64,000 bases of DNA from Bacilli bacterium. GTDB lineage: Bacteria > Bacillota_I > Bacilli_A > RFN20 > CAG-826. The DNA is taken from the NCBI GenBank assembly GCA_017447305.1, contig JAFSNY010000080.1, positions 20,884-84,883 on the forward strand. Direction: 5' to 3'. Shown one piece after another: positions 2,711 to 53,160 of the stretch. A program made the translations under genes and the position numbers. Every line of letters begins with the position of its first letter. Positions within the stretch are counted from its first letter, which is position 1. A model generated the notes under the pieces. That model was not told where the DNA came from and made no database searches. It saw only the letters and a list, made by a program, of their open reading frames with translations.

Positions 2711-3588
2711 TGTTTAAAAGAAAAGAAGAAAAACACATCACAGACAAAGACGTTATGAGAACTCTTCCGCACACTAGAAGAGAAGTGTTTTTCGATTTGC
2801 TTAAACACAGAAAGATGAGTTTATTTGCTTTATCTTGTTTTACCTTCATGTTTTTTATTCCTCTTGCAGTGGATTTAATCTTCTTTAACTTCTTACAAAA
2901 CGTCGCAATTGCGAGTGATAAGACGGACTATTTATTCTCCCTATTTTTCTATGAAATGATTATTTTGATTCCATGTATGGTCATCGGATGTTTGGGGCTT
3001 GCTGGGGCCTTTGAAGTGGCAAAAAACATGGTTTGGCAAGAAGGGACAATGCTCGCGAGTGATTTCTTCCATGGAATTAAGACAACATGGCTTCACGCGT
3101 TGACAAATGGACTAATTCTTGGAGTGATTCTTTCCGCGGGTGTTATTGGCAGTTGTTTCTTACTTATATACCAGCCAGTAAGTTCAATTATCATTGGTGT
3201 TGGAATGGGTGCGATGATTCTCTTCTTCCTATTCTTTGGAATGGCGATTGTGATGAATTACACTCAAGATGCCTATTACCAAAACTCTTATGGAGCGATT
3301 TTAAAAAACTCCTTCCGCTTCATGGGATTATTAAACTGGAGATTACTCGTAATCTTCCTTCTATCTACAGGAGTTGTTGTCACCCTTTGTTTCTTCAATA
3401 TGGTGACATTAATTATCGGAATGGCGTTATTTGCAGTTCTTAATAGTGTAGTGGTTATTCTCTACACCTTAGTGTCCCATTCCGCCTTTGATAAATACAT
3501 TAATATGGATAATTACCCCCACTTGGTCGGAAGGGGTTTATATAAAGTCGAAGATAACGACGAAATAAATAAAGACAAGGAGGCCTAG
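2710..3588 (+). CDS. DUF624/YesL-like polytopic membrane protein
   Basis: There are about 6 TM helices. The N-terminal region (REVFFDLLKHRKMSLFALSCFTFMFFIPLAVDL) is reminiscent of the YesL family, which is often found beside sugar ABC transporters. Its start overlaps the upstream stop by 1 nt. Confidence 0.5.
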   Translation: MFKRKEEKHITDKDVMRTLPHTRREVFFDLLKHRKMSLFALSCFTFMFFIPLAVDLIFFNFLQNVAIASDKTDYLFSLFFYEMIILIPCMVIGCLGLAGAFEVAKNMVWQEGTMLASDFFHGIKTTWLHALTNGLILGVILSAGVIGSCFLLIYQPVSSIIIGVGMGAMILFFLFFGMAIVMNYTQDAYYQNSYGAILKNSFRFMGLLNWRLLVIFLLSTGVVVTLCFFNMVTLIIGMALFAVLNSVVVILYTLVSHSAFDKYINMDNYPHLVGRGLYKVEDNDEINKDKEA

Positions 3589-3592
3589 TTTT

Positions 3593-5476
3593 ATGGCAGA
3601 TGTAACACTACGACATGTTTACAAAGTATATGATGGAGGCGTAAGAGCGGTTAACGACTTTGATCTTGATATTAAAGACAAGGAATTCGTTGTTTTCGTT
3701 GGTCCATCTGGATGTGGTAAATCCACAACTTTAAGGATGATCGCTGGACTTGAAGAAATTACCGCTGGTCAATTATTTATTGATGGTGAATTAATGAATG
3801 AGGTTGAACCAAAAAATAGAGATATCGCGATGGTATTCCAAAGCTACGCTCTATATCCTCATATGACCGTCTATGAAAACATGGCCTTTGGATTAAAACT
3901 AAGACATACACCCAAAGATGAAATCGACCGTCGTGTTAAAGCCGCTGCAGAGATTTTGGAAATTTCCGAACTTCTTTCACGTAAGCCAAAAGCCCTTTCT
4001 GGTGGTCAAAGACAACGTGTTGCTTTAGGTAGAACGATCGTTCGTAATCCAAAAGTCTTCCTTCTTGATGAACCTTTATCTAACTTAGACGCGAAATTAC
4101 GTGTTTCAATGAGAAGTGAAATTACTAAACTCCATGAAAAACTTGAAACGACCTTTATTTATGTTACTCACGACCAAACCGAAGCGATGACGATGGGGAA
4201 TCGTATTGTCGTTATGAAAGATGGATTTATTCAACAAGCTGACACTCCTATCACCTTATTTGAAGATCCATGTAACTTATTTGTCGCGACCTTCCTTGGC
4301 TCTCCTCAAATGAATATTATCGACGCTGAATTATTCATGGATGGAAAAACCCTTAAGGCCAAACTTAATGACTGTGATGATTTAATCGTTTCTTTCCCTG
4401 ATATTAAGGCGAAACAACTCGCTGATAAGAAATATATTGGCGGTAAAGTCCTCTTAGGTATTAGACCAGAACACGTTAGACCTAACGCTGGTAATTTAAA
4501 GACCTATGTCGATGTTGTTGAACATTTAGGAGATGAATCCATCCTTTACACAAAGATGGAAAATAGAAAAGATCAATTCATCATCAAGATGCCATTTAAT
4601 TCGAAGATTCATGCGAATGAGAGCATCAGTGTTGAATTTAATATGGATCATGTTTATTTATTCGACTGCGACACTCATAAAGCGATTATGGGTATCCCAA
4701 ATGAAGATGAAATTCCAGTTACCATTCATAAGAATATGATAACGATAGGGGAACAAGAACTTACTCTTTCTGACGAATTTGTTTCTCACCTTCTCGATAG
4801 CGCATTCGACAAAGAAGTCCACCTTGCGATTAAACCAGATTATGTGACACTTGAAGAAGTTCCTAATTCCTTAAAGATTGAAGCTAAATTAGAATTTGTT
4901 GAACAAAAGACAGACTACCAAGCTTTATATTTCTCCATAAAAGGAATTGAAGGTTACTTTGCGATGAAAATAAGAAATGAAGAACAAATTAAACTTGGAA
5001 GCAAAGTTAATCTCTATCTCCCATATTTAAGACTCACCGTTTATGATGAAGACCACAACAAAGCCTTCTCAAGAGAAGTAGTGCATGAGAATCGTGGTGT
5101 TGCTAATGTCGTTAATAAGAATGGTATGACCATTATTAGAGTCGGCGATTCGACACTTGCTTATCCAGATAATGGTCAATATCCTGATGGTCAATATGAC
5201 ATTATCTTTAAACAAGATAAGTTAATGACAATCTTCTCCAAAAAACTTCTTAAGAAGGGTTATGAGAATCCAGAAATGGATGAACCTCGTAACAGAATCA
5301 AAGTCTCAGCGTATGACGAAGATGTCCTTGGCGATAAGCTTCTTACTTATGTTGAAGTCAAAGGATTTGATAATTATGCATCATTTGTTGTGAACAACAA
5401 TTTCTCCGTTTATAAGATGCCTAAATTTGAATTATTTGTCCCTGCTGATGGATTTATCTTAGAACCAAGAAACTAA
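3593..5476 (+). CDS. MalK/MsmX/UgpC-type sugar ABC transporter ATP-binding protein, with a ~260-aa C-terminal extension (additional TOBE-like repeats).
   Basis: Walker A GPSGCGKST; Q-loop; signature LSGGQRQRVALGR; Walker B FLLDEPLSNLD; H-loop VTHDQ. The canonical MalK regulatory domain ends near aa ~365, and a further ~260 aa follows. Confidence 0.9.
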   Translation: MADVTLRHVYKVYDGGVRAVNDFDLDIKDKEFVVFVGPSGCGKSTTLRMIAGLEEITAGQLFIDGELMNEVEPKNRDIAMVFQSYALYPHMTVYENMAFGLKLRHTPKDEIDRRVKAAAEILEISELLSRKPKALSGGQRQRVALGRTIVRNPKVFLLDEPLSNLDAKLRVSMRSEITKLHEKLETTFIYVTHDQTEAMTMGNRIVVMKDGFIQQADTPITLFEDPCNLFVATFLGSPQMNIIDAELFMDGKTLKAKLNDCDDLIVSFPDIKAKQLADKKYIGGKVLLGIRPEHVRPNAGNLKTYVDVVEHLGDESILYTKMENRKDQFIIKMPFNSKIHANESISVEFNMDHVYLFDCDTHKAIMGIPNEDEIPVTIHKNMITIGEQELTLSDEFVSHLLDSAFDKEVHLAIKPDYVTLEEVPNSLKIEAKLEFVEQKTDYQALYFSIKGIEGYFAMKIRNEEQIKLGSKVNLYLPYLRLTVYDEDHNKAFSREVVHENRGVANVVNKNGMTIIRVGDSTLAYPDNGQYPDGQYDIIFKQDKLMTIFSKKLLKKGYENPEMDEPRNRIKVSAYDEDVLGDKLLTYVEVKGFDNYASFVVNNNFSVYKMPKFELFVPADGFILEPRN

Positions 5477-43250: not shown

Positions 43251-43288
43251 CTATGTATTTGAATTTTTATGCTATTATGTATGCACGT

Positions 43289-45307
43289 ATGAAAAAGATT
43301 TATTGTTTGCTACTACTACCATTCCTTCTCAGCGCTTGTGCTCTCAATAGAAGAACACCAACGAGTGAGGAGTCATCAAATCAGAGTGAACCTGTTTCCG
43401 AAAGTAAAGAAGAAAGCGAATTAGAGTCTATTTCAGAAGAGGAGTCTGAAATGGAAACAGAAAGCTCACACGCATTCACCCAACCATCCGAAGAAGAATC
43501 TAAAGAAACTTCAACTGAAACGTATAGTTCGGAAGAAGAAATAGAAAGTGAATTGGATTCTCCTGAGATTATAAGTGAAGAAGAATCAATTCCAGCGGAA
43601 GAATCTTCTCTAGAAGAAAGCGAAGCTGAAGATCTATCAGAATCTGAAGCAGAAGAAGAATCTGTTGAGCCTTCCGAAGAAGAAAGCATTCTCCCTAGTG
43701 AGGAAGAATCTGAAGAAGAGAGCGCCCTTCCAAGTGAAGAAGAAAGTGTTGTTGCTTCCGAAGAAGAATCCGTAATTGAGTCTGAAGAAGAGATTGACTA
43801 CCCATATTTAAGTGGAGATAAGCTTCTTTTAAATCCTTATGGTGATTATGTCACAACCACCAAAGAATCAAGTTCATTACCTGGTTTATATAGTGATTTA
43901 TGCAAAACAGTGAAATCTAGCACGAACGGAGTGTTACAGTCCGTCTATCAAAAAGGATTAGTGGAATTCTTTAATTACGAGAATAAAGTCGATATTAAGT
44001 TAAATATTTCTAGAGATACTCTCGAAGATCTTCAATATGATCACGAAACAAATAACAAAGAATCGTTTAGAGCATGCTCCATCGACATCACTTACTTAGA
44101 TATGACCTTCCATTATGAAGAAGTCGGTATTAGACAAAAAGGTAATACATCACGTGGCTCTATCCTTAATGGTGATGGAGTTAATTCTCGTCACTATAAA
44201 CTTTCATTTGAAGAAACCTTTGATGATGAATATGTCGATGATCCAAAGGTTTGGGTTGATGATGAGGCCTACGAATATCGTAAAGATCGTGACTTCTTTG
44301 GATTAAGTAAGATTGATTTCAGATGGAATCGTAACGCTGATGCGACATACATGAAAGAATACTACGCCTTTGAAATGTATCGTGGCAACGGTAATCTTGC
44401 TGCAAGAACAAATCCAGTTCATTTCATGATGGATGTTGATGGTGAAGTTTTAAATCATGGTGTTTATCTCGCGGTTGAAACTATTACTAAGAGTTTTATC
44501 AAACGTAACTTTGTTAAATCGGCAAGAAATGGTGATTTATACAAATTATCATGGGGAAGTGGACAAGGAGCGAAATTTAATCCTGTTAACGACGACTTCT
44601 TCGGTGTTGAAACACAATATCGAAATGATAATTCTTTCTGGCAACGTAGTTACACCTATGAGTTAAAGACAAATAAAGACACTAGCACCCATGAAGCAAT
44701 TAAAACATTTATTTCCGTACTTAATGAACAACATGGTAACACTGCTTATGAATTCGCTAATCAATATATGAATTATCAGCAATTCCTCACTTATGCATCA
44801 ATCAGTTATTTATTAGGCGATCCAGATGATTTAAGAAGCAATTATAACAACGCTTATATCTATTTCACTGGTGACACTAATCAAATGTATATCATCCCAA
44901 TTGATAATGACCGTGTTCTAGGCGCGAGTGGTGATGGAGGCAATCCAACCGGACATCATGGTGCGCTTTGCAAACCATTTGATAAAGCAACTGGTTATGG
45001 AGGAGAAAATGATTCCAATTTATTTAATAAATTAATTTTCTCAACTAATTCCACAACCATCCGTCCAGAATATATCACCCGTATTGGCGAAATTATCGAT
45101 GATGGGTGGATGAGTATTGATAAATTCCGCGAGTATTATGAAGCTTTCTACGCTCATTACAAGGATGACATCAATCTTTCAAGTAAGGTTCATGGTCAAT
45201 ACGTTGAATTTTCAATTAATGAATCAACAGACATTTATAGCAATCAAAATTTAAGTGCTGAAACATATATGAACACTAAAGTTCAAACATATAACGATAA
45301 CAAATAG
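43289..45307 (+). CDS. Lipoprotein with an acidic Ser/Glu-repeat linker and a CotH-like (atypical kinase fold) domain
   Basis: Start MKKIYCLLLLPFLLSAC (lipobox LSAC). SEEES repeats run over aa ~30-170. YYAFEMYRGNGNLAARTNPVHFMMDVDGEVLNHGVYLAVETITKSFIKRNF...GDLYKLSWG resembles the CotH family. Confidence 0.6.
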   Translation: MKKIYCLLLLPFLLSACALNRRTPTSEESSNQSEPVSESKEESELESISEEESEMETESSHAFTQPSEEESKETSTETYSSEEEIESELDSPEIISEEESIPAEESSLEESEAEDLSESEAEEESVEPSEEESILPSEEESEEESALPSEEESVVASEEESVIESEEEIDYPYLSGDKLLLNPYGDYVTTTKESSSLPGLYSDLCKTVKSSTNGVLQSVYQKGLVEFFNYENKVDIKLNISRDTLEDLQYDHETNNKESFRACSIDITYLDMTFHYEEVGIRQKGNTSRGSILNGDGVNSRHYKLSFEETFDDEYVDDPKVWVDDEAYEYRKDRDFFGLSKIDFRWNRNADATYMKEYYAFEMYRGNGNLAARTNPVHFMMDVDGEVLNHGVYLAVETITKSFIKRNFVKSARNGDLYKLSWGSGQGAKFNPVNDDFFGVETQYRNDNSFWQRSYTYELKTNKDTSTHEAIKTFISVLNEQHGNTAYEFANQYMNYQQFLTYASISYLLGDPDDLRSNYNNAYIYFTGDTNQMYIIPIDNDRVLGASGDGGNPTGHHGALCKPFDKATGYGGENDSNLFNKLIFSTNSTTIRPEYITRIGEIIDDGWMSIDKFREYYEAFYAHYKDDINLSSKVHGQYVEFSINESTDIYSNQNLSAETYMNTKVQTYNDNK

Positions 45308-45312
45308 TAAAA

Positions 45313-46134
45313 ATGGGTAGAAAAGTAGGAGCGTTTGAAAAAAGAATCCACGAAGTGGACCTCATTAGAGGTATTTTGATTCTAATCGTTATTCTCGATC
45401 ATCTTTTCTATTTCCTTAAAACTAATAACCTGGCATGGTATGACCAAACAGGAGCAGAATTCTTTAACGGCATTTACCGCGTTACAAACTTCTATTGGAC
45501 TAGCCAAACAAGAGAAGTAATTAGACAAATTGTCTTATTCTTCTTTGTCTTTATTTCTGGTGTTTCTTGTTCTTTCTCAAGAAATAACTGGAAAAGAGCA
45601 GCGAAAATGATTGTTGTTTGGGGTGTATTAAGTGTTGTCACTAATATTGGTGACCGTTTATTTAACGGCGGTATTGGTGGATGGATTATCGATTTTAATG
45701 TTATCGGTGTCCTTGCTTGGTCTGTTCTTATTTATTGTTTCATGCAGAATTGTTCTTGGAAAGGATTAACCGCGGCAGGATTAATATGTTTCCTTGTTAC
45801 GGTTTTAGTTATTTATCCAATCCCAGCTTCTATTAGAAATCAGATTTATCTTCCTTCAATGTGGGCTCCTGCTTCACTTGTGAGACCAGCAATTGAAGGT
45901 GCGACAGGGCCAAAGGGAGACTGGATGCCTCTCTTCCCGTATATTTGTTACTTCTTCATGGGGGCGGTAGCGGCAAGATTTATCTATAAAGATAAGAAAT
46001 CATTATTTAAGAGACATGAATGGGAAAGATGGATTTGCTTCACTGGAAGAAATACCATCTGGGTTTATTTATTACATGAACCAATCCTTCTAGGTATTTT
46101 TGCCTTATTAGGACTTATTATTGTTGGAGCATAA
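45313..46134 (+). CDS. Polytopic membrane protein (DUF1624/acyltransferase-3-like)
   Basis: EVDLIRGILILIVILDH is an N-terminal motif typical of DUF1624/HGSNAT-like proteins. It has about 8 TM. Confidence 0.5.
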   Translation: MGRKVGAFEKRIHEVDLIRGILILIVILDHLFYFLKTNNLAWYDQTGAEFFNGIYRVTNFYWTSQTREVIRQIVLFFFVFISGVSCSFSRNNWKRAAKMIVVWGVLSVVTNIGDRLFNGGIGGWIIDFNVIGVLAWSVLIYCFMQNCSWKGLTAAGLICFLVTVLVIYPIPASIRNQIYLPSMWAPASLVRPAIEGATGPKGDWMPLFPYICYFFMGAVAARFIYKDKKSLFKRHEWERWICFTGRNTIWVYLLHEPILLGIFALLGLIIVGA

Positions 46135-46138
46135 TCAA

Positions 46139-47800
46139 ATGTTAGATTTAAAAGGAAAAACGATGTATGAAGCGCTTTTAGAGAGTGCGAACGACTTCCC
46201 TAATGGTACGGCAATTTATTACCAAGGGAAGAAGATTTCTTTTAGAAACTTAATTAGACGCATCGACCGTATGGCGGATATTTTATATAATCGTCTTGAT
46301 ATCAAAAGAAATGATGTTGTTTTAATCGCCCAACCTAATATCCCTGACACTTTAGTTATTTTCTACGCTGCAAACAAGATTGGGGCAATCTCTAACTTTG
46401 TTCACCCATTTACCCCGTTTAACCAAGTTCGAGTCATCATGCAAAAAACAAATACGAAAGTCGCCTTCCTCTTTGAACAAAGAATCGCTAAAGAGGTTGA
46501 TCGTTATCGTAAATTAGTGGATAAAATCTATGTCACAAGAATCGAAGATGATTTACCTTTAGCGCAAAAGATTATCTACCATAGTTTTTATAACAACAAA
46601 ATTAGAAAAAAACTTGGAAAGTGGAGAGGTAAGTTCCCTGGATTTAAATATGTCAAAGATTTAAAACCAACAGGCAAAGGCTCACCATTTGTCAAAGGAA
46701 ACGATAAAGAAACATCAATTCTCCTTCATAGTGGATCAACCACCGGAGATCCAAAAACCATATGCTTATCATCGTGGAATTTCAATTTCCTTTCCGAAAG
46801 AGCGTGTGATTTCTTATCTTGTGAACCTGAGTTCATTAGAGGAAAAGGTATGCTTTCTGTTCTTCCATCATTCCATGGTTTTGGTTTATGTATGACCATG
46901 CATGCACCTATGGTAAATCGTTTTGCCTCCATCTTAATGCCTAAGTTTAGCGCGGAAGGCACAGCGAAGATTATGAAACGTATTAAAGTCGCTTCTATCT
47001 GTGGTGTTCCAACCATGTATGAGAATTTATTAAAATGCGATAAATTCACAAAGAGTAAACATCTTAAAGATTTATATGTTTGTTTCTGTGGCGGAGATAC
47101 AATGCCTATTTCTTTAAAAGAAAGATGGGATAAAGCGATGAAAGAAAATGGCTCTAACTGTCAAATCTTTGAAGGATATGGACTTACTGAGGCGGTATGT
47201 GTTAACGCCGTTAATACATATTCCGCGAATAGAGTTGGCTCATTTGGTAAAGCTGCGAGAGACGTAACTTTTAGAATTGTTGATGAAAAAGGTAATGAAG
47301 TTCCTAGAGGCACTATCGGGGAAGTAACATTAAAATCTGAAGCGATGATGAACGGATATTTTAAGGATCCAGAAAATACAAAGAAAGCCATTGTTGATGG
47401 GTGGCTATATACTGGAGACTTAGGTTATATGGACAAAGATGACTTTATTTTCTTTAAGCAAAGAAAAAAGAGAGTTGTTAAAGTCTCTGGTGTTGGTATC
47501 TTCCCAACTGAAATAGAAAGATTAGTGGAAACCGTTCCTGGTGTTGAAGCTGTCTGCGCGATTCGCATTCCTGACGAAAGACTCCAAAGCGCGATAAAAC
47601 TTTTAGTGGTCGCGAAATACTTTGATGAGGAAGGAATGAAGGAAGCGATTATGGATACTTGCTCAAAATATCTAATTCGTTGGGCAATGCCGAAAGAAAT
47701 TGAATTTAGAGATTCTCTCCCTCTCACTCAGCTTGGAAAAGTAGACTTTAGAAAACTGCAAGAAGAGGAAGACGAAAAAAGAGGAATATCTAAAAAGTAA
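46139..47800 (+). CDS. AMP-dependent synthetase/ligase (acyl-CoA synthetase family)
   Basis: AMP-binding motifs LHSGSTTGDPKT (box I), YGLTE, YTGDLGY and KVSG. The start may instead be the ATG at 46163, which is preceded by aaaggaaaa. Confidence 0.8.
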   Translation: MLDLKGKTMYEALLESANDFPNGTAIYYQGKKISFRNLIRRIDRMADILYNRLDIKRNDVVLIAQPNIPDTLVIFYAANKIGAISNFVHPFTPFNQVRVIMQKTNTKVAFLFEQRIAKEVDRYRKLVDKIYVTRIEDDLPLAQKIIYHSFYNNKIRKKLGKWRGKFPGFKYVKDLKPTGKGSPFVKGNDKETSILLHSGSTTGDPKTICLSSWNFNFLSERACDFLSCEPEFIRGKGMLSVLPSFHGFGLCMTMHAPMVNRFASILMPKFSAEGTAKIMKRIKVASICGVPTMYENLLKCDKFTKSKHLKDLYVCFCGGDTMPISLKERWDKAMKENGSNCQIFEGYGLTEAVCVNAVNTYSANRVGSFGKAARDVTFRIVDEKGNEVPRGTIGEVTLKSEAMMNGYFKDPENTKKAIVDGWLYTGDLGYMDKDDFIFFKQRKKRVVKVSGVGIFPTEIERLVETVPGVEAVCAIRIPDERLQSAIKLLVVAKYFDEEGMKEAIMDTCSKYLIRWAMPKEIEFRDSLPLTQLGKVDFRKLQEEEDEKRGISKK

Positions 47801-47827: not shown

Positions 47828-47911
47828 TGCGATCGTGGCGGAATTGGTATACGCGCTAGCCTCAGAAACTAGTGACTTAGTCATGGAAGTTCAAATCTTC
47901 TCGGTCGCACC
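47828..47911 (+). tRNA. tRNA-Leu (anticodon CAG), type II with a long variable arm
   Basis: Acceptor GCGATCG/CGGTCGC; D-arm with GG; anticodon loop CTCAGAA; variable hairpin TGACTTAGTCA; T-arm GGAAG-TTCAAAT-CTTCT; 3' ACCA. There is one C·A mismatch closing the anticodon stem. Confidence 0.75.
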
Positions 47912-48064
47912 AAAAAGGTAGAATTGGTTCAACATAAAAGTGTCGAACCTTTTTTGTATTATGAACTAACATAAATATTTTTAAAAACTCGGATGCAAAA
48001 AAACTAAGAAATATTTTACATTTGCCCCCAAATGTACTAAAATACATTTAGGAGATTTATTGAT

Positions 48065-48451
48065 ATGTTCAATCAGCAAGAATACATTAATGGTTTTATC
48101 AAAGATAAATATAAGACATTAAAAATACGAATTAGAAAAGATAATAAATTGCTTATTTATAAACTTTCTAGTGTTGACAACATCAATAGATATGTTGTTT
48201 CTTTGATATTGGATGATATCTACAAGAATCGTTCATATAAATTTATTAATAACGAAATAAAAATAGATTTCGAATTGTCGAAAACAATGAAAAATCTCGT
48301 TGAAGAAGCTGAAATCGCTGATATCTTGGAAGATTACGGCTTATATATGAATCTTGCAGACGCTATTGATTCTCAAGGAAAAAAAGAAGTTGCGCATCAT
48401 TTATTGAGAGAAAGTCAATGGAAAAAACTAACTAAGAGGTATTGCTTATGA
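48065..48451 (+). CDS. Small hypothetical protein (128 aa), a candidate partner/antitoxin (HipS-like?) of the downstream HipA-like kinase
   Basis: Its stop overlaps the kinase start by 10 nt (ATGATAAAGATGA). It has no HTH. Confidence 0.5.
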   Translation: MFNQQEYINGFIKDKYKTLKIRIRKDNKLLIYKLSSVDNINRYVVSLILDDIYKNRSYKFINNEIKIDFELSKTMKNLVEEAEIADILEDYGLYMNLADAIDSQGKKEVAHHLLRESQWKKLTKRYCL

Positions 48452-49392
48452 TAAAGATGATAGATTTTTCTAATTGCAAATTGAGTTCGAGAAACCTTGA
48501 ATATGGTGGAAGAGCTGGAGAAAAGAAGGGTATTTTTTATAATAACGAGTTTTGGTTTTTAAAATTTCCAAAGAGTACCTCTGGAATGAATGATATCAAA
48601 GGATTGTCCTATGCAACATCTCCTTTAAGTGAATATATAGGCAGTCATATATATCAAATTCTTGGATATGATGTCCACAAAACTCTTTTGGGTATTTGTT
48701 TTGATGGGAAAAGATACAAGGTTGTTTGCGCTTGTAAAGATTTTATTAAAGATGACAAAACCGAATTGCTAATCCCATACACCGCTTTAAGAAATGACAC
48801 AAACCCAGAGGTAATGGGCCGAGATGAAGAATCATCATTGTCTGCATCAAATATTAATGAGATTATTTTTCAACTCGACCACAACACGGTTTTGAAAAAT
48901 ATAAAAAATGCGAAAGAAAGATTTTGGGATGTTGTTCTCATTGATATGCTCATTAATAACAATGATAGAAACGAAGATAATTGGGGAGTTATCAAAGATA
49001 AAACTAACAGCACATATCGTCTATCACCAATTTATGATTGCGGCAATTGCTTTTATGGAAAGACTAGCGAAGAAAGAATTTTAGAAATACTCTCTGATGA
49101 AGCTAGATTGTTAAGCAGTGCCTTAAATGGAATAACAGCTTACGAGGACGATGAAGAAAAAAGAATTAGAAATGAAGATATCGTTAAATTGAATAATGGA
49201 GAACTCCGCAATTCTATTTATAGAGTTTATACTCTATTTTCAAACAAAATGGGCGAAATCACAAATTTTATTAACGAAATACCAGAATCTTATCAAAATG
49301 TTGTTGTGATGAGCAGTCAAAGGAAAAAATACTATATTAAAACAATTATGATTAGGTTGGAAAAGATATTGTTTCCATGCGTTACAAAATAA
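48442..49392 (+). CDS. Short HipA-homologous Ser/Thr kinase (HipT/CtkA-like, lacking the HipA N-terminal subdomain)
   Basis: The Gly-rich loop YGGRAGEKKG resembles HipA VAGAQEKT. The catalytic/Mg motif DMLINNNDRNEDNWGVIKDKTNSTYRLSPIYDCG resembles HipA ...DGHAKNFS...LTPFYD. It is 316 aa, against ~440 for HipA. Confidence 0.65.
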   Translation: MLMIKMIDFSNCKLSSRNLEYGGRAGEKKGIFYNNEFWFLKFPKSTSGMNDIKGLSYATSPLSEYIGSHIYQILGYDVHKTLLGICFDGKRYKVVCACKDFIKDDKTELLIPYTALRNDTNPEVMGRDEESSLSASNINEIIFQLDHNTVLKNIKNAKERFWDVVLIDMLINNNDRNEDNWGVIKDKTNSTYRLSPIYDCGNCFYGKTSEERILEILSDEARLLSSALNGITAYEDDEEKRIRNEDIVKLNNGELRNSIYRVYTLFSNKMGEITNFINEIPESYQNVVVMSSQRKKYYIKTIMIRLEKILFPCVTK

Positions 49393-51400: not shown

Positions 51401-51478
51401 GCGCCTGTAGCTCAGTTGGATTAGAGCATAACCCCCCGAAGGTTAGAGTCACACGTTCAAGTCGTGCCAGGCGCTCCA
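51401..51478 (+). tRNA. tRNA-Arg (anticodon CCG), with atypical C33
   Basis: Acceptor GCGCCTG/CAGGCGC; D-arm GCTC-AGTTGGATTA-GAGC; anticodon stem TAACC/GGTTA with loop CCCCGAA; T-loop TTCAAGT; 3' TCCA. Confidence 0.6.
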
Positions 51479-51529
51479 AAAGATAATTCGAATGCATTTA
51501 AAATATATATCAAAGAGGGATTAAGAATC

Positions 51530-53026
51530 ATGAGCAGACAAGAATTTAAAGATTTAGTATTCTATGAGATTTACCCAACTTCTTTTTATGACTCTAATAA
51601 TGATGGAATTGGAGACTTAAAAGGAATCGAATTAAAACTAGATTATGTTAAAGAATTAGGATGTAACGCAATTTGGTTAAATCCATTCTTTAAATCCCCA
51701 TTTTTCGATGGCGGATATGACGTTGAAGATTTCTTTGATGTCGATCCTCGATTTGGCAATATCGAAGATTTTAAATCCCTCATTAAAACCGCTCATGAAA
51801 AAGGAATCAAAATCATCCTTGATTTAGTCGCAGGACATGCCTCAATAAAAAATAAAGAATTCCAAAAAAGTACAGAGCCAAAAAGAAATGAATATTCTGA
51901 TTTATTTGTCTGGAATGATTCGGTATGGGAATGGAACCCAAATTTCCGTTTAATGGCGGGTATCTATCAAAGAAGTGGTGCGTTCCTCGTTAATTTCTTC
52001 GCACATCAACCAGCATTTAATTACGGATTTAATATCATTGATCGCCCATGGCAAATGTCTTATGAAGATCCAAGAACATATCAAGCAAGAGAATACATGC
52101 TTAAAGTCATGAGACATTGGCTAGGGTTAGGCGCGGATGGCTTTAGAGTCGATATGGCGGACTCCCTTGTCAAAAACGATAACGAAAAAGATGCAACCAT
52201 CAAAGTATGGAAATGTATGTTCTCAATTATCAGAAAAGAATATCCAAATGCATATTTCGTTTCCGAATGGTCCAACCCTTCCAGAGCGTTAGAAGCTGGT
52301 TTTGACGCTGACTTTGTCTTAGACCACTGGGATAACTTCTATCATCACATGGTCAGAAGTAATGAAAACACGAGAGGCAAATCACTCTTGAATGGTAGCG
52401 ATGATTTCGAATATGTCATTAAAGATATGAAATATCGCTTTGAAGAAGCAAATAAGCATGATGCTTATATCGCTCTTATCAGTGGTAATCATGACACTCC
52501 TAGAATTGCAGATTCATTAGATTTAAATAGACTGAAAATGTTCTATCTCTATCAATTAAGTATGCCAGGCACTCCATTCATTTATTATGGTGATGAATTA
52601 ATGATGAAAACAATGCCTCTAGATTCTAAAGATGGCGGTTATCAAAGAACTGGTGTTCGTATCCCGATGGTGTGGAATAACCAAGATAAATATCATGGAT
52701 TCTCGAACACTAAAGGAGAAACATATTTACCATTTTACGATGTAAATAAAGTTTCAGTGGAAGACGCGATTAAAGACGAGGAATCTCTGTATAATTTCAT
52801 CAAGCGTTTAATCGCTCTTAGAAAAGAAAATAGCGGACTACGTACATCAAATTTAGCGATAAAAGAAGATAAAAAGGTCATTGAAATCACTCGTGGAGAT
52901 AATCTCAAAGTTGTCCTCAATTTATCAAATAATGACTATAAGGTTGAAGGTAACATTTTAATTGCGTCCCAAGATGTTAAAGACAATCTTCTCCCTTCAT
53001 TCTCAGGTGCGATTATTAAGCAATAA
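51530..53026 (+). CDS. GH13 alpha-glucosidase (oligo-1,6-glucosidase / alpha-phosphotrehalase-like)
   Basis: VFYEIYPTSFYDSNNDGIGDLKGI, LGCNAIWLNPFFKSP, GYDVEDFFDVDPRFG, GFRVDMAD, EW and GNHD are the conserved GH13 regions I-IV. The start at MSRQEF follows an aaagaggga RBS; the listed ORF start lies inside the tRNA. Confidence 0.85.
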   Translation: MSRQEFKDLVFYEIYPTSFYDSNNDGIGDLKGIELKLDYVKELGCNAIWLNPFFKSPFFDGGYDVEDFFDVDPRFGNIEDFKSLIKTAHEKGIKIILDLVAGHASIKNKEFQKSTEPKRNEYSDLFVWNDSVWEWNPNFRLMAGIYQRSGAFLVNFFAHQPAFNYGFNIIDRPWQMSYEDPRTYQAREYMLKVMRHWLGLGADGFRVDMADSLVKNDNEKDATIKVWKCMFSIIRKEYPNAYFVSEWSNPSRALEAGFDADFVLDHWDNFYHHMVRSNENTRGKSLLNGSDDFEYVIKDMKYRFEEANKHDAYIALISGNHDTPRIADSLDLNRLKMFYLYQLSMPGTPFIYYGDELMMKTMPLDSKDGGYQRTGVRIPMVWNNQDKYHGFSNTKGETYLPFYDVNKVSVEDAIKDEESLYNFIKRLIALRKENSGLRTSNLAIKEDKKVIEITRGDNLKVVLNLSNNDYKVEGNILIASQDVKDNLLPSFSGAIIKQ

Positions 53027-53072: not shown

Positions 53073-53160
53073 GCTCGAGTGGCGAAACTAGGTAGACGCA
53101 GTAGACTCAAAATCTACCGATAGTGATATCATACCGGTTCGATTCCGGTCTCGAGCACCA
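53073..53160 (+). tRNA. tRNA-Leu (anticodon CAA), type II
   Basis: Perfect acceptor GCTCGAG/CTCGAGC; anticodon stem GTAGA/TCTAC with loop CTCAAAA; 15-nt variable arm; T-arm ACCGG-TTCGATT-CCGGT; 3' ACCA. Confidence 0.85.

Follow-up and report, generated by a model that had tools for sequence, protein, structure and literature searches.

Closest described systems

HipA-type kinases are textbook persistence toxins. Here we describe a two-gene locus that encodes a short kinase of the HipA superfamily and a small partner protein, located in a 64,000-nucleotide stretch of DNA (the window) from a metagenome-assembled 'Bacilli bacterium' (contig JAFSNY010000080.1, positions 20,884 to 84,883 of the forward strand). 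The upstream gene, open reading frame A (ORF-A), encodes 128 amino acids and the downstream gene a kinase homologous to CtkA of Helicobacter pylori. The most likely function of the pair, and in our judgement a probable one, is that of an autoregulated toxin–antitoxin or abortive-infection module.

CtkA (JHP0940, PDB 3AKJ) is a Ser/Thr kinase encoded on the tfs3 integrative and conjugative element (ICE) of H. pylori, where ctkA occupies a variable cargo slot and alternates with AbiEii/AbiEi-like and Fic genes (PMC12443045). The literature on CtkA does not describe a partner gene for it. The window kinase is homologous to CtkA over its whole length and, like it, is a short core kinase whose Gly-rich loop lies close to the N-terminus; the catalytic and Mg-binding blocks are also common to the two. 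CtkA is, however, described as a host-directed effector dependent on a type IV secretion system (T4SS) and as having an H. pylori-specific C-terminal tail, which the window kinase lacks, and the window kinase, unlike CtkA as reported, is translationally coupled to a partner with predicted ribbon-helix-helix (RHH) and three-helix domains. A close relative of CtkA on the Campylobacter fetus plasmid pCfviMP1 (locus L012) does have such a partner upstream, and a Fic gene after the kinase.

Short Hip kinases with separate partners are known from several systems. Gerdes et al. (2021) distinguish ten organisations of Hip kinases and do not mention CtkA (PMC8262856); the names CtkA and HipA occur together in just one, unrelated paper of the library searched. 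Among the ten, the short core kinases HipG, HipI, HipJ and HipM (clade XI) pair with Stl/HTH, HipS-HIRAN, HipS or resolvase-like proteins, named HipR, HipN, HipS and HipP (PMC8262856; HTH, helix-turn-helix). The window kinase resembles them in being core-only (~280-320 amino acids) and in belonging to a bicistronic operon, but the clade-XI partners are mostly encoded downstream and none of them combines an RHH with a three-helix domain. Judged by these partner descriptions, the arrangement in the window is outside the ten published organisations. The hipBST systems of Escherichia coli O127 and Legionella also combine a short kinase without N-subdomain 1 with a small upstream gene and place DNA binding outside the kinase. 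Their partner is HipS and their DNA-binding protein a separate HTH protein, HipB, whereas in the window the partner is a predicted three-helix bundle and DNA binding is predicted for an RHH domain fused to it. A further candidate, PDC-M03, consists of a HipA-like kinase and a HIRAN protein (PMC13245101). Component A is matched by the window kinase at full length in the PADLOC PDC-M03A models (PDLC04340, E 3e-26), while ORF-A and its stand-alone relatives match neither the PDC-M03B nor any HIRAN model; because the second component of PDC-M03 is a HIRAN protein, we did not assign the pair to that system.

The classical type II toxin–antitoxin systems with RHH antitoxins (RelBE, ParDE, DinJ-YafQ, VapBC with an RHH VapB, and FitAB) have an N-terminal RHH domain and a C-terminal toxin-binding part in the antitoxin, both of which are predicted here, and they share with the window the antitoxin-first gene order, overlapping genes and a palindromic operator (here an operator-like dyad) in the promoter. 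The toxins of these systems are RNases or gyrase poisons, whereas the putative toxin of the window is a protein kinase. Unlike the C-terminal parts of the classical RHH antitoxins, the C-terminal domain of ORF-A is predicted to be a folded three-helix module, which also occurs as a stand-alone protein.

Gene structure and translational coupling

Both genes were recovered from the ORF list at the positions first noted for them. ORF-A and the kinase gene are real genes, because they have 656 and 979 database homologues, respectively, and because the alignment of 27 ORF-A sequences is conserved, with a mean column identity of 78%. The best 120 homologues of ORF-A are 68-100% identical to it and nearly all 128-142 amino acids long; relatives are found in metagenome-assembled genomes of Anaeroplasmataceae, Acholeplasmatales and Bacillales from rumen and gut samples.

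The mechanical ORF list begins the kinase at a TTG (48442) and ends it at 49392, from which the preliminary description derived an overlap of 10 nucleotides with ORF-A. We take the start to be most likely the ATG at 48448, because this ATG overlaps the TGA of ORF-A as ATGA and is preceded, eight nucleotides upstream, by the Shine-Dalgarno sequence AAGAGG, both features being retained in related loci. There the Shine-Dalgarno sequence takes the form AGGAG(A/G)T and is part of the codons for the 'RRY' that is conserved at the C-terminus of the partner. The overlap is then more likely 4 nucleotides long, and the kinase would comprise 314 amino acids; the gene callers used for public assemblies took the next ATG, at 48457 (311 amino acids). 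A terminator scan returned nothing convincing 3' of the kinase gene.

The kinase belongs to the CtkA family

A phmmer search aligns residues 4-295 of the kinase with residues 3-281 of CtkA (3akj; E 2.2e-37), and a profile built from eight relatives extends the match to 1-313 against 1-293 (E 4.2e-99). The Pfam family HipA_C (PF07804) is matched with 26.3 bits against a gathering cut-off of 30.5 (E 6.9e-6), over residues 121-201 only; in precomputed annotation many homologues carry PF07804, which is flagged as 'weak' for the window kinase. Being below the gathering score, the HipA_C match is a placement in the superfamily by sequence and not one of a canonical HipA_C member. The search for HipA_C that had been suggested for this protein thus yields a real match, together with a full-length match to CtkA, but no score above the family cut-off. 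The NCBIfam scan of the kinase gave nothing relevant. HipT of hipBST (7ab3, 7ab4) matches the kinase profile only with E 0.45 over 39 residues, confined to the catalytic loop, and membership in the HipT clade was rejected.

The hallmark kinase motifs that had been read from the sequence, YGGRAGEKKG, DMLINNNDRNEDNWG and SPIYDCG, are all present. In an alignment of kinase relatives spanning ~29-100% identity (A2), the residues G21, G24, K26, K39, D166, N171, D173, R174, N178, W179, G180, D197 and G199 are invariant, as is P194 of the SPIYDCG block alongside D197 and G199. Since the ATP-binding, catalytic and DxG residues are thus preserved throughout A2, the window protein is very probably an active kinase. 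The catalytic loop reads DRNEDN in the window clade versus DRHNGN in CtkA. The Gly-rich loop begins at residue 19 and the N-subdomain of HipA is therefore absent; together with the end-to-end alignment with CtkA, this bears out the initial view of the protein as a HipA-superfamily kinase devoid of that subdomain. The Streptococcus pyogenes kinase 'SP-TyK', described in a paper that cites CtkA, is a different and unrelated protein of the UbK/TsaE type.

The NCBI name of the window protein is 'CtkA family protein'. The proposal that the locus represents an undescribed variant of the HipA toxin family therefore holds for the arrangement, which falls outside the published organisations, but not for the kinase family, which has been named already. 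What appears to be new is the partner family and the organisation of the module, not the kinase family.

The partner protein is built of two modules

A profile search covering 1.8 billion cluster representatives resolves ORF-A into two modules, each half of the protein having independent homologues. Relatives of residues 1-55 are stand-alone proteins of ~60 amino acids and a fusion to a nucleotidyltransferase (P0389, Pfam NTP_transf_2). The relatives of residues 55-128 include many proteins of 70-76 amino acids that stand alone, together with fusions to an HTH domain (P0340), a ParE-like domain (P0252) or other N-termini. Neither ORF-A, nor the stand-alone proteins of its N-domain and C-domain, nor the distant partners match any family in Pfam, NCBIfam, PADLOC or PHROG, and the C-domain has no match among PDB families either.

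AlphaFold2, run on a diverse alignment, models the N-domain with a predicted local distance difference test score (pLDDT) of 91.7 as a helix (4-15), an extended segment (16-27) and two further helices (28-36 and 40-56). The predicted fold resembles the RHH of VapB, RelB, ParD, DinJ and MazE, and the N-domain profile gives a weak but in-register match to the Arc repressor (E 0.69, 'nvNaYIlnLI' versus 'SVNSYIYQLV'). The first ~55 residues of ORF-A are, on this modelling, a predicted RHH DNA-binding domain. The C-domain is modelled as three helices (73-87, 91-110 and 116-126; pLDDT 75-93). The preliminary description had also stated that the locus has no HipB. This stands in so far as no HTH gene is present, and no ORF for a separate HTH HipB cistron lies between the tRNA gene upstream and ORF-A, but a predicted RHH DNA-binding domain is built into ORF-A itself and faces a conserved dyad.

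Two further occurrences of the N-domain were seen in the course of the search. A stand-alone RHH-type N-domain protein of 63 amino acids (P0290, 'MULTISPECIES: hypothetical protein [Bacillota]') is encoded in a prophage (L093-L098, 3001-3192), where the terminase/HNH genes lie on one side of it and a group of small early-type genes on the other. At L077 (2290-2604) the ORF upstream of the kinase has the RHH-type N-domain only ('...AKYNREKMVQRVVRFSPNERDLLDHLDAQPNKAGYLKSLIREDM...'), with no recognisable three-helix domain.

A conserved dyad lies within the promoter

The best promoter-like match in the region (10/12) lies directly upstream of ORF-A. Since promoter-like sites are no more numerous here than in shuffled controls, the evidence for the promoter is its conservation: ORF-A homologues are preceded by the same TTTACA...TATAAT arrangement. 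Enclosed by the -35 and -10 elements is a perfect dyad, ACATTTG-N4-CAAATGT. Its half-sites, ACAT(T/A)TG and CA(A/T)ATG, are invariant in 12 loci, the window and 11 others, while the 4-nucleotide centre and the flanks vary. All of the 11 other loci (L004, L006, L008, L013, L015-L020 and L022) have partners carrying the N-domain, and their flanking DNA is unrelated. The dyad of the related loci lies 30-50 nucleotides upstream of the partner gene. In L020 both arms have changed symmetrically, to ACATATG...CATATGT. By its sequence the dyad looks like an operator for a dimeric repressor, and ORF-A would be the protein that binds it. The features of the locus are collected in Table 1.

Table 1. Positions of the genes, domains, motifs and candidate regulatory elements of the locus in the window
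Feature	Position	Strand	Basis or remark
ORF-A, 128 amino acids, two-domain antitoxin-like partner	48065-48451	+	ORF list, ATG start, 656 homologues
ORF-A N-domain, residues 1-55, predicted RHH DNA-binding domain with an N-terminal helix in front	48065-48229	+	
ORF-A C-domain, residues 55-128, predicted three-helix domain, conserved kinase partner	48227-48448	+	AlphaFold2 and iterated hidden Markov model (HMM)
CtkA-family (HipA-superfamily) Ser/Thr kinase, 314 amino acids from the most likely start	48448-49392	+	CtkA and PADLOC matches, ATGA overlap with the ORF-A stop
Gly-rich (P-loop-like) motif YGGRAGEKKG, residues 19-28	48502-48531	+	G21, G24 and K26 invariant in A2
Catalytic block DMLINNNDRNEDNWG, residues 166-180, with catalytic Asp173 and metal-binding Asn178	48943-48987	+	alignment A2; aligns with CtkA DTLLGNFDRHNGNWG
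Mg-binding block SPIYDCG, residues 193-199, DxG counterpart of DFG	49024-49044	+	aligns with CtkA APIFDCG
Putative sigma-70-type promoter: -35 TTTACA (48015-48020), 17-nucleotide spacer, -10 TAAAAT (48038-48043)	48015-48043	+	
Operator-like dyad TACATTTG-cccc-CAAATGTA, between -35 and -10	48017-48036	.	inverted repeats I6, I4
Third half-site TACATTTAGG	48043-48052		inverted-repeat search
Shine-Dalgarno AGGAG for ORF-A	48050-48054	+	sequence; 10 nucleotides before the ATG
Shine-Dalgarno AAGAGG for the kinase, within codons of the ORF-A C-terminal tail	48434-48439	+	sequence; equivalent to AGGAG of homologues
tRNA-Leu(CAG), context only, outside the module	47829-47912	+	ARAGORN

Kinase and partner recur together in unrelated contexts

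When one genome per species was scanned, at least 529 genomes had a kinase relative; the best 80 loci were kept, none of them from Helicobacter. The iterated HMM of the C-domain recognises one ORF per locus, adjacent to the kinase and on the same strand, in 60 of these 80 loci. The partner lies immediately upstream in 44 of the 80, its stop no more than ~60 nucleotides away from the start of the kinase and in many cases overlapping it; it lies immediately downstream in 15, a Lachnospiraceae clade in which the gene order is reversed; and in one (L039) a Fic-like gene separates partner and kinase. The other 20 loci are negative for the partner, three of them being cut by contig ends. The partner also stands beside the kinase in all 12 of 12 IMG/VR contigs, and upstream of it on the Treponema bryantii plasmid pTB1. 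The adjacency in 60/80 genome and 12/12 viral loci establishes the upstream ORF as a genuine, linked partner, in agreement with the initial pairing of the two genes.

The composition of the partner varies between clades. Fusion to the RHH domain is restricted to the close clade, with partners of 128-157 amino acids, and in one contig from a phage collection (L011) the upstream partner of the kinase carries an HTH in place of the RHH. Most other partners stand alone, comprise 70-100 amino acids, have no DNA-binding domain and are accompanied by no consistent third gene. The neighbourhoods of the module on long contigs are mutually unrelated, and its genomic position differs in every genome examined.

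The reverse comparison, starting from 54 metagenome loci chosen by the C-domain, finds 36 with a kinase ORF that starts at or overlaps the partner stop. Of these 36 kinases, at least eight are truncated fragments (L132, L133, L142-145, L158 and L159), with sizes of, for example, 77 or 166 amino acids in L132-L145, beside an intact partner. By sequence, the kinase thus appears to decay while the partner is kept. Among the remaining 18 of the 54 loci, some are cut at a contig end, one (L128) has a full-length ORF-A homologue as an orphan with no kinase, and others have a different gene downstream. An MNT-like nucleotidyltransferase follows the partner in L116, L118, L119, L131, L160 and L162, and essentially the same partner precedes an MNT-like gene in L116 and a kinase in L117. 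The gene after the partner in L136 encodes, to judge from a reading of its sequence, an AbiEii-like nucleotidyltransferase. Conversely, a kinase on a Megamonas plasmid (L010, 1520-3001) has an AbiEi-like upstream partner instead (PADLOC E 7e-59). Toxin–antitoxin modules typically behave in this way, with partners exchanged, gene order reversed and kinases decayed next to partners that stay intact.

Fic-family and VbhA-/AbiEi-like antitoxin genes were also observed to adjoin CtkA-type kinases at L012 (3956-4771), L039 (~3127-3960) and L010 (1520-3001). A similar picture is known from H. pylori, where ctkA, fic and AbiEii alternate in the cargo slot of the tfs3 ICE (PMC12443045).

Proposed function and alternatives

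The locus consists of two adjacent, co-directional genes that overlap as ATGA and recur together in unrelated contexts, as expected of type II toxin–antitoxin systems. From its gene structure, the family assignments, the predicted domain folds, the conservation of the operator-like dyad and the gene linkage computed above, we infer a mechanism that would involve toxicity of the kinase, its neutralisation by the C-domain, binding of the operator and a cellular kinase target. The two genes would form an operon of the type II kind that is self-contained and regulates itself. A single promoter would drive ORF-A and then the kinase, the latter through translational coupling by the ATGA and the Shine-Dalgarno sequence in the last codons of ORF-A. 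ORF-A would dimerise through its N-terminal RHH domain, bind ACATTTG-N4-CAAATGT between the -35 and -10 elements and repress the operon, while its C-terminal three-helix domain would bind the kinase and hold it inactive. Loss, degradation or titration of ORF-A—upon loss of the mobile element, stress or phage infection—would free the kinase, which would then phosphorylate an essential cellular protein and arrest growth. HipA and HipT suggest, by analogy, that this target may belong to the translation machinery.

Several observations weigh against this interpretation. CtkA, the one relative that has been characterised, is described not as a toxin but as an effector that a T4SS delivers and that acts on host cells (PMC5536186, PMC7366825). 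The predicted fold of the C-domain is generic and offers no clue to a mechanism. Among the 77 kinase loci not cut by contig ends, 17, or about a quarter, have no recognisable partner. Both proteins are, moreover, unusually conserved within the clade (68-80% identity over hundreds of metagenome variants), which would also fit a non-toxic housekeeping role.

The alternative closest to the proposed module is one in which the pair would serve primarily in anti-phage abortive infection, a phage product releasing or activating the kinase and so shutting down the cell; the mechanism would be that of a toxin–antitoxin pair and the role that of defence. The match of the kinase to the candidate defence kinase PDC-M03A points in this direction, as do the presence of the module on prophage-like and viral contigs, the exchange of partners with AbiEi-, AbiEii-, MNT- and Fic-type genes, which are common in defence contexts, and the phage activation that Gerdes et al. 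propose for related short Hip kinases (PMC8262856). PDC-M03, however, requires the HIRAN second component (PMC13245101), which is absent at the window locus; the PDC systems are themselves candidates only; and the neighbourhood in the window consists of metabolic genes and is not a defence island. We therefore regard a primary role in defence as unlikely, while giving it serious weight.

The conservation of both proteins within the clade and the position of the locus amid ordinary chromosomal genes could also suggest a non-toxic kinase serving the lineage's own signalling, with ORF-A as a transcription-factor or regulatory subunit and possibly a substrate. Such a role is improbable in view of the genomic position, which is different in every genome examined, the patchy spread over phyla, plasmids and viral contigs, the reversed gene order in one clade and the kinase pseudogenes beside intact partners: these are traits of selfish or accessory modules and not of core signalling.

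Full-length homology to CtkA and hosts that are gut or rumen bacteria would be in keeping with a secreted, host-directed effector, for which ORF-A might act as an export chaperone or regulator. Yet no signal-peptide-like N-terminus is seen on reading the sequence, no type IV secretion genes occur among the annotated neighbours, and the partner has a predicted DNA-binding fold. The T4SS signal has been proposed to lie in a C-terminal tail that is reportedly H. pylori-specific (PMC5536186), and the window kinase aligns only to about residue 281-295 of CtkA's 325. We consider secretion very improbable. Least credible is the HipBST-like split system envisaged in the preliminary description, with ORF-A as a separately encoded, HipS-like N-subdomain 1 of HipA capping the kinase: a kinase devoid of this subdomain does follow directly upon a small gene, as in hipBST, but the reading is already contradicted at the level of the predicted fold, as AlphaFold2 gives the 128-residue protein an RHH and a three-helix domain, all-helical save for the short extended RHH segment, so that HipS is rejected on fold and sequence, and HipT is matched by the kinase profile in the catalytic loop alone.

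The toxin–antitoxin interpretation can be extended beyond the window, and we do so tentatively, holding the extension somewhat short of an even prospect. CtkA-family kinases as a whole, that of H. pylori included, would act as the toxins of a toxin–antitoxin or abortive-infection family that is widespread but has escaped recognition, and that would amount to an eleventh Hip organisation. Its antitoxin would be the new three-helix domain, fused to an RHH or HTH or standing alone, interchangeable with AbiEi-like antitoxins and found also beside nucleotidyltransferase-type genes, and the effector CtkA would be an exapted toxin carried as ICE cargo.

If the proposed module is what it seems, it would add another organisation to the catalogue of ten and bring in a new antitoxin domain missed by Pfam, NCBIfam, PHROGs and PADLOC, in a kinase–partner pairing that is common among bacteria of the gut and rumen and on their mobile elements. 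It would also place CtkA, which is associated with virulence in H. pylori and has so far been studied only as a host-directed effector, in a family that behaves genomically like toxin–antitoxin or defence modules, and this tie suggests a bacterial target and a bacterial role. With its conserved operator-like dyad, its partner of two domains and its compact operon, the system lends itself directly to testing.

Genomic neighbourhood

ORF-A begins 152 nucleotides downstream of tRNA-Leu(CAG), which had been taken as an insertion context for accessory genes. The module is not flanked by any att-like direct repeat of the tRNA 3' end, the annotated neighbourhood contains no integrase, and no tRNA gene adjoins the module in 14 related loci searched over 4-6 kb; the sole tRNA within that distance is an unrelated tRNA-Glu, 3.2 kb from the module in L006. 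A modest dip in GC content at the module (28-33% versus 35-37%) is the only compositional signal. The adjacency to the tRNA gene is real but appears to be incidental, and the insertion hypothesis was dropped.

Other features of the window were recorded along the way. A predicted lipoprotein of 684 amino acids (43253-45307) has a long, acidic, Ser/Glu-rich N-terminal region of low complexity, followed by a CotH domain (Pfam, L001). A second tRNA-Leu, with the anticodon CAA, is located at 53073-53160. The alpha-amylase ORF of the mechanical list (51464-53026) starts at a GTG at 51464, inside tRNA-Arg(CCG) (51401-51478); its real start is placed ~66 nucleotides further downstream, because public gene calls give a protein of 498 amino acids. 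The AMP-binding ligase gene upstream of tRNA-Leu(CAG), at 7683-9344 in L001 (window 46121-47800), is split into 422 and 123 amino acids in L002 (7673-9344), another sample of the same strain, and the split reflects either a frameshift variant or an assembly error.

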